Shown: positions 47,063 to 55,159, numbered from the stretch's first letter. The stretch: DNA of 64,000 bases from a virus (IMGVR_UViG_3300034082_003579); one strand, 5' to 3'. Translations and numbers: made by a program. The notes: a model not told the origin generated them from the sequence alone.

Positions 47063-47136
47063 TGGCGTATCCCCGAGGACTCGACCCTTGACTAGCGGTT
47101 TTGGAGACTGATATGCTGCCATTACATTAGAGACAC
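47063..47136 (-). tRNA. degenerate tRNA-Trp-like (CCA anticodon loop), possible pseudogene
   Basis: anticodon region cagtctccaaaaccgc is homologous to the Trp gene at 54559 but its 5' stem is mutated (3/5 pairs); T-loop gtcgagt. Confidence 0.35.
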
Positions 47137-47142
47137 AAAAAT

Positions 47143-47217
47143 TGGCGACTCGTGGGAGGATCGAACTCCCGTGACCGGATAGACAATCCAGCGTAATAAC
47201 CATTATACGAACGAGCC
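47143..47217 (-). tRNA. tRNA-Asp(GTC) (tentative)
   Basis: acceptor ggctcgt/acgagtc, anticodon stem ctgga/tccgg, loop uuGUCua (U37 unusual), T arm gggag-ttcgatc-ctccc. Confidence 0.6.
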
Positions 47218-47225
47218 ATAAACTT

Positions 47226-47302
47226 TGGGGTGACTACTGGGTAACGATCCCAGTCTACAACTTTCACAGAGTTGGGTGCGGAACCTTTACACTATAGCCA
47301 CC
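47226..47302 (-). tRNA. tRNA-His(GTG)
   Basis: extra G-1 opposite C73, anticodon stem caact/agttg, loop cuGUGaa; unusual T-loop atcgtta. Confidence 0.7.
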
Positions 47303-47311
47303 ACGGAAACT

Positions 47312-47386
47312 TGGTACTCGGTAGGGGAGTTGAACCCCTCTTGCAGGAATGAAAATCCTGAGTCCTAACCGATAGACGAACCGAGT
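47312..47386 (-). tRNA. tRNA-Glu(TTC)
   Basis: perfect acceptor actcggt/accgagt, Glu-like D-arm ttcgtcta, anticodon stem cagga/tcctg, loop uuUUCau, T-loop ttcaact. Confidence 0.65.
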
Positions 47387-47392
47387 ATAACT

Positions 47393-47433
47393 TGGTGGAG
47401 TATCCTGGGCTCTACCATTGAACTACAGCCACC
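47393..47433 (-). pseudogene. chimeric tRNA fragment (His-like 5' half fused to Tyr-like 3' end)
   Basis: 41 nt: ggtggctgtagttcaatggtagagc + ccaggatactccacca; 17 nt identical to the 3' end of tRNA-Tyr at 45804; lies 22 nt upstream of the HNH gene. Confidence 0.5.
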
Positions 47434-47454
47434 ATTGTTACTACAATAAATATT

Positions 47455-47730
47455 TTGATGAATAAAGAACGAATTCCAGTTAATATGCGCCGCATCGTAA
47501 TTGAACGAGACGGATTACGCTGTGTATATTGCGGAGTTGATTTGCTTAGTAATGAAGTACACTTAGATCATGTAGTACCTGAATCCCAAGGCGGTCCGAC
47601 TTCTGTCGGTAATTTGCAAGTTACCTGCGGTAAATGTAATCTTGAAAAAGGTATACTAACCGAAAGCGAATTTGAAAATAAACTTCGTACACGAGCGTTA
47701 AACATACTAAACAGAATTGGTTACAAATAA
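47455..47730 (+). CDS. HNH endonuclease
   Basis: CVYCGV...HLDHVVP...GN...CNLEKG: HNH motif with zinc-finger cysteines. Confidence 0.75.
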   Translation: MMNKERIPVNMRRIVIERDGLRCVYCGVDLLSNEVHLDHVVPESQGGPTSVGNLQVTCGKCNLEKGILTESEFENKLRTRALNILNRIGYK

Positions 47731-47744
47731 ATTAACACAATATT

Positions 47745-48052
47745 GAAACATACTTAATAGGGAAGGACAGATATTCTAGCTCGGCTCGTCTCCCGAGATA
47801 TCAAATTCATTCTCATTACTCTCGCCTGTTATATCCGCCATACCCCGATTCAGCCCATACGGTAACCGTGGCTGACGTTGTAGTCCATGTTTCGTATGAG
47901 CAACATCTGCGACCAGACATTTACACCCATACTAACCTAACGGAAGCGATAACCCTATTGTGCTCACACGGGCGGTCGATATCAGGGTTTCGTCTTTTAG
48001 CCGTCCCTGAGTCACTTACCCACATGCTCACAAAAATATGCTTCAATATTGC
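47745..48052. repeat. long inverted-repeat hairpin element copy 1 (14-bp arms aatattgaaacata / tatgcttcaatatt, ~290-nt insert)
   Basis: arms nearly perfect complements; the right arm plus ~100 nt downstream (including a promoter) is repeated at 48147..48300. Confidence 0.6.
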
Positions 48053-48097
48053 GTCTAGTTTTTAAAGAACATTTAATGCATTTCTTACTATACAACT

Positions 48098-48126
48098 ATT
48101 ATACTGCTGAAACTATTTCTGGTCAA
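48098..48126 (-). promoter_or_regulatory. sigma70-like phage promoter TTGACC-N17-TATAAT
   Basis: TTGACCagaaatagtttcagcagTATAATagt; transcribes into hairpin element copy 1. Confidence 0.6.
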
Positions 48127-48146
48127 CTCGTTTGTGCGATTTAACA

Positions 48147-48225
48147 ACACAATATTGAAGCACACTACCCCGGACAACTCTTCGGACTGGGCTGTTTCAC
48201 CAGCTAAAATGTGTTTCAATATTGC
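48147..48225. repeat. long inverted-repeat hairpin element copy 2 (arms aatattgaagcacac / gtgtttcaatatt)
   Basis: same arm family as copy 1 with a ~45-nt loop; followed by the same gcgtYKagtttttaaagaac tail and promoter. Confidence 0.6.
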
Positions 48226-48270
48226 GTTGAGTTTTTAAAGAACGTTTTGTGCATTACTTACTATAAAACT

Positions 48271-48299
48271 ATTATAGCAACATGTTGATTGTTGGTCAA
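48271..48299 (-). promoter_or_regulatory. sigma70-like phage promoter TTGACC-N17-TATAAT
   Basis: TTGACCaacaatcaacatgttgcTATAATagt; transcribes into hairpin element copy 2. Confidence 0.6.
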
Positions 48300-48443
48300 C
48301 TGCTATTTGTGTTGTTGTAAAAACGCAACATACTATTTTCATCATCGATTCTATTTTTAATATACCACTATTATAACTCTGAAGCCGTTGCCGATCAACC
48401 CAATTTTTGGATAAATATCAATACAAAACGAATAGGAGCAGGT

Positions 48444-53855: not shown

Positions 53856-53866
53856 ATTAAAACTTT

Positions 53867-53944
53867 TGGAAGTAAGGGTGGGATTCGAACCCACGGTTTT
53901 TGCGCTTTGCAGGCGCATGCATTGGACCACTCTGCCACCTTACT
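53867..53944 (-). tRNA. tRNA-Cys(GCA)
   Basis: perfect acceptor agtaagg/ccttact with U73 discriminator, perfect anticodon stem tgcgc/gcgca, loop cuGCAaa, T arm gtggg-ttcgaat-cccac. Confidence 0.75.
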
Positions 53945-53949
53945 ATTGT

Positions 53950-54025
53950 TGGTGCTGATGGTGAGGATTGAACTCACGACCTCATCCTTACCAAGGATGC
54001 GCGACTACCACTGTGCTACACCAGC
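53950..54025 (-). tRNA. tRNA-Thr(GGT)
   Basis: acceptor gctggtg/catcagc, perfect anticodon stem catcc/ggatg, loop uuGGUaa, T arm gtgag-ttcaatc-ctcac. Confidence 0.7.
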
Positions 54026-54031
54026 GAACCT

Positions 54032-54517
54032 TTATGCTGCTTTTGCCTGCATGTCTAACACTTCTTTTAAACGGTCGGCAGCATAACTTGCAGCAAAAGC
54101 TTGTGGCTTAACAAAGGGTACAACATTACACATACCTTTGATGTAGCCAATGGCTTCGTTTACCACGCATGAACTACCGTGCAGTTCACTTGGGTTGATG
54201 TCCAAGTGAACTTCCACAATACGATCTTCCAACACATCCTGCAGCTTTAAATACAACTCTGCAATCTTGTACACTTCTGTCATTAGTCGCATGCGTGGTT
54301 TGTCTTTCTTGCTATCCCAATCACGTTCACGTTGTACTTCACCGAAAATCTTACAACCGTTGTTGCCATTGATGTGAACAACGATGGCCAAGGTGTAATC
54401 GGCAAACCATGCTCCATCCACGGAGAATCGAGAACTGTCACCCCCGATGTAAATTCTAGTACCGGGACCTTGAGCTTCGATGAACTGCCGTACTTCATCA
54501 ATGTCGATCTTACGCAT
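54032..54517 (-). CDS. hypothetical protein
   Basis: 161-aa ORF between tRNA-Thr and tRNA-Trp. Confidence 0.4.
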   Translation of the reverse strand: MRKIDIDEVRQFIEAQGPGTRIYIGGDSSRFSVDGAWFADYTLAIVVHINGNNGCKIFGEVQRERDWDSKKDKPRMRLMTEVYKIAELYLKLQDVLEDRIVEVHLDINPSELHGSSCVVNEAIGYIKGMCNVVPFVKPQAFAASYAADRLKEVLDMQAKAA

Positions 54518-54558
54518 TATAACCTCTTGTTTGTTAGCGTACTTTTAACTACAAAAAC

Positions 54559-54634
54559 TGGCCAGCCAGGAAAGCCTCGAACTTTCAACCTGCGGTTTTG
54601 GAGACCGCTGCTCTGCCAATTGAGCTACTGACTG
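54559..54634 (-). tRNA. tRNA-Trp(CCA)
   Basis: acceptor cagtcag/ctggctg, perfect anticodon stem gcggt/accgc, loop cuCCAaa, T arm gaaag-ttcgagg-ctttc. Confidence 0.75.
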
Positions 54635-54641
54635 ATAAACT

Positions 54642-54717
54642 TGGTGCGGGGTACAGGGTTCGAACCTGCGACCTGAACGTTGGCAACGTTCCGCTCTACC
54701 AGCTGAGCTAACCACGC
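54642..54717 (-). tRNA. tRNA-Gly(GCC)
   Basis: D-arm gctc-agctggta-gagc, perfect anticodon stem gaacg/cgttc, loop uuGCCaa, T-loop ttcgaac. Confidence 0.75.
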
Positions 54718-54735
54718 ATTATAACTATTTAACCT

Positions 54736-54810
54736 TGGTGGACCGTGGGAGAATCGAACTCCCGCTTCATGCTTGCAAAGCACATGTGCTACCACTATCA
54801 CTAACAGCCC
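54736..54810 (-). tRNA. tRNA-Ala(TGC)
   Basis: G3:U70 wobble identity pair present, anticodon loop uuUGCaa, T arm gggag-ttcgatt-ctccc. Confidence 0.75.
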
Positions 54811-54819
54811 ATTAAAACT

Positions 54820-54895
54820 TGGTCTCCATACGAGGATTTGAACCTCGACCACATGGTCCCAAACCATGCACGCTACCAGATTACGCCATACGGAG
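54820..54895 (-). tRNA. tRNA-Pro(TGG)
   Basis: acceptor ctccgta/tatggag, perfect anticodon stem catgg/ccatg, loop uuUGGga, T arm cgagg-ttcaaat-cctcg. Confidence 0.75.
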
Positions 54896-54904
54896 ATAAA
54901 AACT

Positions 54905-54993
54905 TGGTGGACGAAGGTAGGACTCGAACCTACTACAAAGCTACGAAGGCAGCATAACTCATGCTACGAGCCGTTTCCTAACGGCGTTCGCCC
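54905..54993 (-). tRNA. noncanonical ~89-nt class II-like tRNA-like gene (anticodon unresolved; possible pseudogene)
   Basis: acceptor gggcgaa/ttcgtcc + A + CCA and T arm gtagg-ttcgagt-cctac are intact, but the only 5-bp stem in anticodon position has loop ugaguua (G33); internal direct repeat tcgtagc x2 and no variable-arm hairpin. Confidence 0.35.
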
Positions 54994-55002
54994 ATTAAAA
55001 CT

Positions 55003-55077
55003 TGGTACTGCATACGGGTTACGATCCCGTCTGGTCACCTTGAAAGGGTGATGACCTCACCAGAAGTCGAATGCAGC
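55003..55077 (-). tRNA. tRNA-Glu(TTC), second copy
   Basis: acceptor gctgcat/atgcagt, D-stem gact/ggtc, perfect anticodon stem tcacc/ggtga, loop cuUUCaa (E. coli Glu-like); unusual T-loop atcgtaa. Confidence 0.6.
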
Positions 55078-55083
55078 ATTAAC

Positions 55084-55159
55084 TGGCACCGTAGACGGGA
55101 ATCAAACCCGCTGCGATCTGATAGACAGTCAGATATCACCATCAGGTGGACTCTACGGT
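55084..55159 (-). tRNA. tRNA-like with GTC anticodon loop and noncanonical D-arm (possible Asp paralog/pseudogene)
   Basis: perfect acceptor accgtag/ctacggt, anticodon stem tctga/tcaga, loop cuGUCua; D-stem cacc/ggtg shifted with a 4-nt loop; T-loop tttgatt lacks C56. Confidence 0.4.

Follow-up and report, generated by a model that had tools for sequence, protein, structure and literature searches.

To our knowledge, textbooks confine the long variable arm, among bacterial tRNAs, to those for Leu, Ser, Tyr and Sec, and the decoding of AUA is thought to depend almost always on lysidine. This text concerns the tRNA array of a large phage, carried on the minus strand of a 64,000-nt stretch of viral DNA (IMGVR_UViG_3300034082_003579, the whole of which is called the window below), and in particular five of its units, here named (a) to (e). 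An initial annotation, parsed manually from the sequence, had proposed that such units may be tRNA-derived regulatory RNAs, suppressor-like or otherwise unusual decoders, or duplicates decaying through endonuclease-driven recombination. The reading favoured here, to which we give a probability of about 0.7, is that the array mixes conserved noncanonical tRNAs, debris of array shuffling and one tRNA-like RNA. The first class, structurally noncanonical yet very probably functional, would comprise (a), (c), the second of two tRNA-Glu genes (tRNA-Glu2), tRNA-His with its A54:U58 pair, and a tRNA-Ser(UGA) of the (8/4) type, that is, with an acceptor stem of 8 bp and a T stem of 4 bp. The second class would hold (d), a decaying tRNA-Trp paralog, and (e), a His/Tyr chimera beside an HNH gene, and the third would consist of (b), with its acceptor/T/CCA half intact and no usable anticodon loop. 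The five units are:

53761–53855, minus strand: unit (a), a 95-nt tRNA(UAU), delimited by ARAGORN, family alignments and covariation; called by ARAGORN at default settings as a 95-nt tRNA-Ile(tat); sole Rfam hit tRNA-Sec, 25 bits
54905–54993, minus strand: unit (b), an 89-nt tRNA-like RNA, from fold prediction and homolog comparison; uncalled by default ARAGORN; Rfam tRNA-Sec, 16.5 bits
55084–55159, minus strand: unit (c), a 76-nt noncanonical tRNA-Asp(GUC), from homolog alignment; uncalled by default ARAGORN and found only at a relaxed threshold; Rfam tRNA-Sec, 31.3 bits
47063–47136, minus strand: unit (d), a degenerate tRNA-Trp(CCA) paralog, from Rfam (tRNA, 37.8 bits, above threshold) and comparison with relatives; uncalled by default ARAGORN
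47393–47433, minus strand: unit (e), a 41-nt tRNA-His/tRNA-Tyr chimera, from sequence identity at both ends; uncalled by default ARAGORN; no Rfam hit

Described systems related to unit (a)

Several described tRNAs share features with (a). Allo-tRNAs, tRNA-Sec-like molecules reported by Mukai et al. (2017; PMC5389517), resemble it, in the passages of that paper covered here, in their long variable arm, tetraloop D arm and 6-bp anticodon stem and, for the allo-tRNA(UAU) species, in the anticodon. Among the anticodons of allo-tRNAs, UAU is the commonest and GUC is also predominant, "five-stem-junction" structures are noted among these RNAs, and they were detected, like (a), by weak hits to the tRNA-Sec model. 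The long variable arm, the tetraloop D arm and the longer anticodon stem are all present in (a), and all three covary. In contrast, the same passages give allo-tRNAs an 8/4 or 9/3 branch and G73 or U73 (Ser identity), whereas (a) has a 7/5 branch, and A73 both in the window and in at least 100 viral members of its family. Unit (a) differs from the defined allo-tRNAs in both respects, but it may overlap with the "slightly different" allo-tRNA(UAU) structures mentioned there.

Another example is the nematode nev-tRNA-Ile(UAU) (Hamashima et al. 2012, 2015), which has the same class II shape and UAU anticodon and is conserved in its clade. It is, however, eukaryotic, nematode-specific and leucylated in vitro, whereas ATA behaves as an Ile codon in the setting of (a), and a conserved Ile-anticodon-like motif in the variable-arm loop further distinguishes the (a) family from it. 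Bacterial tRNA-Ile(UAU) of canonical size, as found in Mycoplasma mobile, Bifidobacterium and lactic acid bacteria (PMC3575796), shares with (a) the anticodon and the presumed role of a lysidine-independent AUA decoder. These tRNAs are 76–77 nt long and need an adapted isoleucyl-tRNA synthetase (IleRS), for instance with R865 in M. mobile, whereas the (a) family has an added hairpin of 13–17 nt and phages depend on the IleRS of their host. Finally, an engineered anticodon-arm mimic at the tip of a variable arm enhanced aminoacylation (Mukai 2020; PMC7590224), which is the same mechanism as the one proposed below for the variable-arm loop of (a). That system is synthetic and uses HisRS fused to an extra anticodon-binding domain, whereas (a) would have to act on unmodified IleRS. 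No description of an AGAU variable-arm loop, or of a prokaryotic or phage tRNA-Ile(UAU) with a variable arm, was found in the openly readable full-text literature; the architecture of (a) is very widespread and appears to be undescribed.

The tRNA array and its annotation

Between 40.5 and 56.4 kb, the minus strand holds 28 tRNA genes and a permuted transfer-messenger RNA (tmRNA) according to ARAGORN, most of them confirmed by Rfam, and the polycistronic array itself comprises about 30 minus-strand units at roughly 43.4–56.4 kb. Nearly every unit encodes its own CCA, and short spacers of the type CCA-AGTTTTAAT separate the units, the disputed units (a) to (d) having the same type of spacer in front as their canonical neighbours. 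The inter-unit motif CCA-AGTTT(T)A(A)T recurs from 43.4 to 56.4 kb; it could be a signal for processing and also provide microhomology for the shuffling of the array. Small open reading frames (ORFs) are scattered within the array and encode RNase H-like YkuK-family, MazG-like, radical SAM and HNH endonuclease proteins. From tRNA-Ile(GAU) to tRNA-Ala, the order of the genes is different in each close relative, which indicates that the array is being reshuffled. Megablast of both sub-regions against GenBank phages returned isolated tRNA matches only and no related phage; the related set consists of 80 IMG/VR loci with tRNA arrays, retrieved via the neighbouring YkuK-like protein, on contigs of up to 168 kb.

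The gathering thresholds of Rfam are 29 bits for the tRNA model (RF00005) and 47 bits for the tRNA-Sec model (RF01852). RF00005 is absent from the hits listed for (a), (b), (c) and tRNA-Glu2; as the listing shows the best hit per clan, any RF00005 match to the three disputed units would score below the tRNA-Sec value given above. None of the three reaches 47 bits or has the UCA anticodon that goes with a 13-bp acceptor branch in tRNA-Sec, their anticodons being UAU in (a), none in (b) and GUC in (c). Automated finders do not restore canonical folds to these loci, and the manual parsing proved accurate. Gene finders, moreover, miss several genes of this kind, which gives the array a relevance for tRNA annotation. 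No suppressor anticodon was found in the window and nothing in the analysis points to regulatory RNAs. Among the roles initially suggested, unusual decoders is a fair label for (a) and (c).

A large family of long tRNA(UAU) genes

Unit (a) is not degenerate but belongs to a large family of 90–99-nt tRNA(UAU) found in phages and bacteria. Its acceptor/T branch is 7/5, and its D arm has 4 bp and the tetraloop UGGU (GCAT-TGGT-ATGC). The 6-bp anticodon stem bears the loop UUUAUAA, the variable region of 26–27 nt holds an arm with a 5-bp stem and the loop CAGAUGG, and A73 and an encoded CCA are present. The features of the canonical cloverleaf, namely an acceptor stem of 7 bp, a T stem of 5 bp, an anticodon loop of 7 nt with U33 and a purine at 37, and the G18G19/U55C56 elbow, are all seen in (a), with the tetraloop D arm and the variable-arm hairpin in addition. 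The ARAGORN call bears out the manual description of a 95-nt unit with good acceptor and T arms, a 4-nt D loop, a 26-nt variable region and the anticodon loop uuUAUaa.

Long genes are the rule in related phages: the 80 related loci have 26 genes with the anticodon TAT, and 25 of these measure 90–95 nt. An alignment of 15 distinct sequences of the family has a mean column identity of 67%, and the D-loop GG, TTATA at positions 33–37, the T-loop core, ACCA and the AGAT of the 7-nt variable-arm loop are invariant in it; RNAalifold recovers the variable-arm hairpin with compensatory double changes. The subfamily to which the window's (a) belongs is made up of nine distinct 95-nt sequences with the tetraloop D arm and the loop CAGAUGG. 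Its five-helix structure is paired in 243 of 243 cells, both-sided changes are seen in 16 of 27 pairs and in every one of the five helices, none of 500 shuffles matches these values, and sliding the partners abolishes the signal. Positions 49 and 65 are always paired in the subfamily (A:U in five sequences, U:A in three, C:G in one), whereas A8 lies opposite an A at position 65 in several members, the window's (a) and L015 among them. Since 49:65 covaries and A8 is unable to pair with 65 in these members, the branch is 7/5 and not 8/4.

The family pattern TTATA..YAGATRR..GTTCRA(N14)ACCA was scanned for in IMG/VR and in a bacterial genome collection. The former yielded at least 100 distinct genes that ARAGORN calls tRNA-Ile(tat), from at least 120 matches; among the matches listed, A73 is present in 100 of 100, the acceptor stem has 7 bp in 99%, and 29 different variable-arm stems occur, all of them paired. 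In bacterial genomes, 73 of the 120 matches listed are long tRNA(tat) genes, set beside about 44 chance matches estimated for the whole scan. The carriers among these listed matches include Xanthomonas, Pseudoxanthomonas, Stenotrophomonas, Lysobacter, Microbulbifer and Marinobacter, as well as members of the Nitrospirales, Planctomycetota, Verrucomicrobia, Acidobacteria and Bacillota. Invariance in such pattern-derived sets is partly built in, and this tempers the case made from them; the unbiased samples are the 80-locus set with its 15-sequence alignment and a set of unrelated phage loci, which gave nine distinct tat tRNAs, five of them long with the loop CAGAU(U/A)A and two of canonical size (76–77 nt).

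At one Xanthomonas locus, the long tRNA(UAU) adjoins dfp and radC, followed by island-like genes. GenBank phage records label genes of this kind plain tRNA-Ile (e.g., Vibrio phage henriette 12B8 and Acinetobacter phage qsb1), and in single-tRNA phages such as Vibrio phage henriette the sole tRNA is a tRNA(UAU) of the (a) family. No long tRNA(UAU) was found in E. coli genomes, and a second BLAST against phages, with another member of the family as the query, gave no match.

Two alternative roles for the variable-arm hairpin fared poorly. The hairpin cannot be the true anticodon arm, as its stem has just 3 bp in 69% of members and its "position 33" is A; canonical geometry belongs to the UAU hairpin. 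The idea that the UAU anticodon makes a kissing contact, within one molecule or in a dimer, with an AUR triplet of the variable-arm loop is weakened by the existence of CAGAUUA loops.

AUA decoding and the variable-arm loop

Codon ATA is used in the window at 15.8 per 1000 codons. In codon-threaded alignments of orthologs taken from the related loci, the residues that replace those at ATA columns are I (.38), V (.26) and L (.12), and ATT/ATC columns show the same profile, whereas columns of Leu codons differ (L.51–.65) and those of Ser codons differ too. The likeness to ATT/ATC indicates that AUA is read as Ile; given also the invariant U33, A37 and A73, (a) is best understood as an AUA decoder that accepts Ile. 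Most likely, then, (a) accepts isoleucine and reads AUA without lysidine.

The identity set of bacterial tRNA-Ile, as worked out in E. coli, comprises anticodon-loop nucleotides, A37, A38 and A73, together with G34 or lysidine-34. Measured against it, A73 and A37 are invariant in the (a) family, position 38 is A in the window and A, C or U across the family, and position 34 is U. E. coli IleRS discriminates 360-fold against the UAU anticodon relative to the lysidine form (PMC3575796), so that a phage tRNA(UAU) faces a recognition problem in ordinary hosts. The commonest variable-arm loop of the family, CAGAUAA, differs at a single position from the usual anticodon loop of tRNA-Ile(GAU), CUGAUAA. 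The invariant YAGAU loop might thus serve as an extra recognition element for IleRS, a mimic of the GAU anticodon loop that would compensate for the poor recognition of U34 by the ordinary enzyme. It is a doubtful proposal that YAGAU is a natural pseudo-anticodon by which ordinary host IleRS would charge a poorly recognised UAU tRNA, allowing TilS-independent AUA decoding in phages and many bacteria. If it were true, Ile(UAU) would join Leu, Ser and Tyr as a fourth isoacceptor family of class II shape in bacteria, and the family would be a natural template for the engineering of pseudo-anticodon tRNAs. The other tRNAs that bear on this proposal are:

56276–56351, minus strand: CAU tRNA, tRNA-Ile2-like (lysidine type) by sequence resemblance
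L053/L059/L060: 90-nt tRNA-Asn(GUU) with a long variable region, class II-shaped, with a non-Leu/Ser/Tyr anticodon
L033: 86-nt tRNA-Lys(UUU) with a long variable region, class II-shaped, with a non-Leu/Ser/Tyr anticodon

A number of observations weigh against the proposal or, more generally, against (a) as an Ile-accepting decoder in use. In the variable-arm loop, "position 33" is A and "position 37" can be U (CAGAUUA), and the mimicry of an anticodon loop is to that extent imperfect. Nothing like an anticodon is seen in the inserts of the 90-nt tRNA-Asn and of the 86-nt tRNA-Lys, both from related loci, which leaves a general rule that variable-arm inserts hold a pseudo-anticodon unsupported. 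As the window also has the CAU tRNA resembling tRNA-Ile2, the decoding of AUA does not strictly require (a). Mukai et al. (PMC5389517) turned six allo-tRNA(UAU) species into amber suppressors and saw no activity in E. coli, so that part of the long tRNA(UAU) genes may have no use in translation. Lastly, a long variable arm together with A73 is a signature of the type used by leucyl-tRNA synthetase (LeuRS) as well.

This last point leads to a different reading, in which (a) is handled as a class II tRNA and receives its amino acid from LeuRS, or perhaps from the seryl or tyrosyl enzyme (SerRS, TyrRS), with AUA ambiguous or recoded as for nematode nev-tRNA-Ile(UAU). A single anticodon change separates UAA from UAU, and the leucylation of nev-tRNA(UAU) in vitro is a precedent (PMC4300185; PMC3333845). 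However, ATA columns behave as ATT/ATC columns and unlike those of Leu or Ser codons, and an invariant AGAU loop with a strongly conserved anticodon/D core would be unexpected under LeuRS recognition. Besides, the genes occupy apparently core chromosomal positions in some bacteria, such as the Xanthomonas locus by dfp and radC, and nematodes themselves are without detected mistranslation (PMC4300185). Charging of (a) as a class II tRNA is therefore quite unlikely, and an Ile-accepting AUA decoder is preferred. A widespread and constrained tRNA(UAU) with an Ile-anticodon-like arm, annotated plainly as "tRNA-Ile", points to an overlooked solution for AUA decoding and IleRS recognition.

The CAU tRNA at 56276–56351 presumably resembles E. 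coli ileX and, if it is a tRNA-Ile2, would be a second AUA decoder beside (a). By their sequences, three Ile decoders appear to be present in the array, namely (a), tRNA-Ile(GAU) and the Ile2-like tRNA. The window has three tRNAs with a CAT anticodon, all on the minus strand (56276–56351, 44658–44732 and 51981–52056), and these apparently represent three types: tRNA-Ile2-like, initiator-like (C1×A72, no encoded CCA) and elongator Met.

A tRNA-Asp with a swapped elbow pair

Judged by how its homologs vary, unit (c) is a constrained tRNA-Asp isoacceptor of unusual build and not a decaying copy. Its D arm is CACC-TGAT-GGTG, with a tetraloop, its anticodon loop is CUGUCUA, its T loop UUUGAUU lacks C56, and G73 and an encoded CCA are present; the initial annotation had rightly given the loop cuGUCua, a D arm with a 4-nt loop and a T loop without C56. 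Compared with the canonical cloverleaf, the unit has U37, and A19:U56 in place of G19:C56. Position 37 is nearly always a purine in tRNAs. The anticodon arm of (c) is common among phage tRNA-Asp genes, and the loop YUGUCUA with its U37 is a usual feature of phage tRNA-Asp both at 47143–47217 in the window and in many IMG/VR loci (L081–L133). The canonical partner in the array is:

47143–47217, minus strand: canonical tRNA-Asp(GUC), partner of (c), from ARAGORN and Rfam, with the same loop type YUGUCUA

A scan keyed to the acceptor stem of (c) found the unit on 28 viral contigs, in 15 distinct 76-nt sequences. The CUGUCUA loop, with the GUC anticodon of tRNA-Asp, and G73 are invariant in (c) and its 14 distinct homologs, and double changes are found in four of the five anticodon-stem pairs and in two D-stem pairs. 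The third base of the D loop and position 56 of the T loop (19:56) form A:U in nine of the 15 sequences and G:C in six, and are never mixed; what looked like a missing C56 is thus one side of an elbow pair that has been swapped with compensation. The branch can be read either as 8/4 (A8:U65) or as 7/5 (G49·U65), the two being indistinguishable because A8, G49 and U65 are all invariant. Set beside the (8/4) phage tRNA-Ser of a 2017 paper, (c) can be drawn as 8/4 too, with a tetraloop D arm; the passages of that paper covered here have no Asp member, and (c) is an Asp tRNA.

A further noncanonical tRNA of the same kind, absent from the initial annotation, is an (8/4) tRNA in its own right:

51755–51847, minus strand: 93-nt (8/4) tRNA-Ser(UGA)

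Its acceptor stem has 8 bp (GGGTAGCA/TGCTGCCC) and its T stem 4 bp, and the eighth acceptor pair covaries, being A:U in most homologs and G:C in L031. It was missed by default ARAGORN and is reached in Rfam via the tRNA-Sec model only, at 33 bits. The eighth acceptor pair, the long variable arm and the Ser anticodon agree with the (8/4) phage tRNA-Ser as presented in the covered passages of the 2017 paper.

T loops with A54 and the two tRNA-Glu genes

Three T loops beginning with A54 had been noted and all three are present, ATCGTTA in tRNA-His, ATCGTAA in tRNA-Glu2 and ATCGAAA in tRNA-Phe; likewise, ARAGORN finds the two tRNA-Glu(TTC) genes.

47312–47386, minus strand: tRNA-Glu(UUC) no. 1, canonical, from ARAGORN and Rfam (54 bits)
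55003–55077, minus strand: tRNA-Glu(UUC) no. 2 (tRNA-Glu2), T loop AUCGUAA (A54/U58), from ARAGORN
47226–47301, minus strand: tRNA-His(GUG), T loop AUCGUUA (A54/U58), from ARAGORN and Rfam
51591–51666, minus strand: tRNA-Phe(GAA), T loop AUCGAAA (A54/A58), from ARAGORN and Rfam

The related loci supplied 699 distinct tRNAs, of which 645 have T/A at positions 54/58, 34 have A/T and 12 have A/A, and T/T does not occur (0). In A54 T loops, the reverse-Hoogsteen 54:58 pair is thus usually flipped and not lost. The two tRNA-Glu genes are not recent duplicates, both being divergent, and the homologs of tRNA-Glu2 show compensatory changes in the anticodon and T stems. Compensatory change in related phages, which had been named as a check on the oddities of the array, was thus found for (a), (c), tRNA-Glu2 and the 54:58 pair. 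The swapped 19:56 pair of tRNA-Asp and the A54:U58 T loops show that phage arrays explore viable non-standard tRNA cores.

Debris of array shuffling

Units (d) and (e) are of another kind, and two features of the window are needed for their interpretation:

54559–54634, minus strand: canonical tRNA-Trp(CCA), intact partner of (d), from ARAGORN and Rfam (60.8 bits)
47455–47730, plus strand: HNH endonuclease ORF (Pfam HNH_5, E = 3.5e-13)

The simplest reading of (d), and a plausible one from its sequence, is that of a decaying tRNA-Trp paralog, in keeping with what had been suggested for it. The unit is Trp-like, and its RF00005 score of 37.8 bits, although above the threshold of 29, is the lowest in the array. 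The closest relative is the tRNA-Trp of L009 (61 of 74 positions identical), and, compared with its closest relatives, (d) has the mismatches A29×C41 and A50×C64 and G54 in place of T54, with a D stem that is compensated. No ortholog with the same changes was found. The chimeric nature of the 41-nt unit (e), with a His-like 5' half and a Tyr 3' end, is borne out by sequence identity: its 5' portion matches the leader, G-1 and 5' part of the L001 tRNA-His at 37 of 37 nt, and the heptamer CCAGGAT marks the passage to the 3' end of the tRNA-Tyr in the window (CCAGGATACTCCACCA). Beyond the anticodon stem's 5' strand, nothing is left of the tRNA but the fused 3' end of the acceptor with its CCA. 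As the junction lies at the shared CCAGGAT, the unit can be ascribed to a deletion at 7-nt microhomology, and the HNH ORF is only 22 nt away. Both (d) and (e) answer to the pattern of a tRNA pseudogene, in which paired or universally conserved positions are disrupted without compensation and a conserved ortholog is lacking.

In its broadest form, the decay account offered in the initial annotation would make all odd units duplicates on their way out after endonuclease-driven recombination. Units (d) and (e), the latter with the HNH gene beside it, do fit this account, as do the highly mosaic state of the array between close relatives and the rarity of (b), with its Tyr-like 3' half. Extended to the whole set, however, it is very improbable: (a) and (c) are widespread, with compensatory changes in their helices and in the 19:56 tertiary pair, and A54 co-occurs with U58, which never occurs with T54. 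For (a), (c), the A54 T loops and tRNA-Glu2, decay is refuted by compensatory change across the respective families, and the mixed array described at the outset is the reading retained.

A tRNA-like RNA next to tRNA-Glu2

In unit (b), the acceptor stem has 7 bp and ends in A73-CCA, the D stem has 6 bp and the tetraloop AGGA, and the T arm is canonical except that a single extra C comes after it; position 3:70 is G3·U70 in the window and A3:U70 in L135 and L136. Its middle is bistable and built on the repeat GTAGC...GCTGC...GTAGC, from which two mutually exclusive folds arise, either two small hairpins, GCTGC-CTTC-GTAGC among them (−31.8 kcal/mol), or a 6-bp stem with the loop UGAGUUA, which has G33 (−29.5 kcal/mol). 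There is no canonical anticodon loop in these two most stable folds. The earlier description of (b) holds for its 89 nt, its acceptor stem with ACCA, its T arm, the direct repeat TCGTAGC (×2) and the G33 loop, and fails in denying a variable-arm hairpin, as GCTGC-CTTC-GTAGC can form, although not together with an anticodon arm. An assignment as tRNA-Ala, suggested by G3·U70, A73 and an AGC anticodon in ARAGORN, was rejected, since the fold is 7.7 kcal/mol worse than the best one and L135 and L136 have A3:U70.

The 3' half of (b) resembles phage tRNA-Tyr. The unit always follows tRNA-Glu2, and the two travel as a module. Homologs are confined to three other contigs (L134–L136): two viral scans and one metagenome scan gave these and unrelated hits, and nhmmer over the loci gave no more. 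In L135 and L136, 88 of 89 positions of (b) are identical and the adjacent tRNA-Glu2 has six changes; the identity with L134 is explained by a recently shared block of about 200 nt. The excess of conservation over the neighbouring gene is marginal (1/89 against 6/75 changes in tRNA-Glu2, in one comparison), which counts against a strong claim for (b). Unit (b) may be either a functional tRNA-like RNA or a relic hitch-hiking with tRNA-Glu2.

A related question is whether (a), (b) and (c) act outside translation, as decoys or substitutes in the face of tRNA-cleaving defence nucleases of the host, or are stable by-products of processing. For the latter case, the tRNA cluster of T4, with its two small stable RNAs, offers a likeness. 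Unit (b) keeps its acceptor stem, T arm and CCA without a canonical anticodon loop, (a) and (c) are redundant with the Ile2-like tRNA and the canonical tRNA-Asp of the array, respectively, and the allo-tRNA(UAU) species tested were translationally inactive in the covered part of PMC5389517. Nevertheless, the 7-nt anticodon loops of (a) and (c), with their U33, are invariant, and both units have an A73 or G73 that fits the isotype and an encoded CCA. They also covary throughout their helices and tertiary pair, the pattern expected of decoding tRNAs, and phages with a single tRNA, such as Vibrio phage henriette, carry just tRNA(UAU). A function outside translation is thus unlikely, and decoding tRNAs are preferred for (a) and (c). 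The array is relevant to ideas of phage tRNAs that escape tRNA-targeting defences of the host.

Other features of the window and of related arrays

The remaining features are:

40479–40877, minus strand: permuted two-piece tmRNA (ARAGORN tmRNA*; Rfam tmRNA_permuted, 119.9 bits, and beta_tmRNA, 101.2 bits)
39244–40407, minus strand: outer-membrane porin-like protein, judged from the ORF translation
54032–54517: RNase H-like YkuK-family protein ORF, within the tRNA array
58240–59862, minus strand: full-length GroEL-like chaperonin, judged from the ORF translation

According to ARAGORN, the tmRNA encodes the tag peptide ANEDSFVAERLAA, and it lies just downstream of the porin ORF (39244–40407), which is of betaproteobacterial type. 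In related phages (L016, L020 and other loci), tRNAs with CTA (amber) and possibly TTA anticodons occur. The unrelated viral contigs L380 and L381 carry tRNAs with 8-nt anticodon loops (four-base anticodons) and G3·U70. Finally, loci L001–L080 contain 73 distinct tRNA-sized gaps (55–135 nt) between adjacent tRNA genes, many of which have T-arm-like motifs, yet no tRNA is called in them by ARAGORN even at relaxed settings. Further uncalled noncanonical tRNAs may be hidden in these gaps, one cluster of which recurs between tRNA-Cys and tRNA-Glu.

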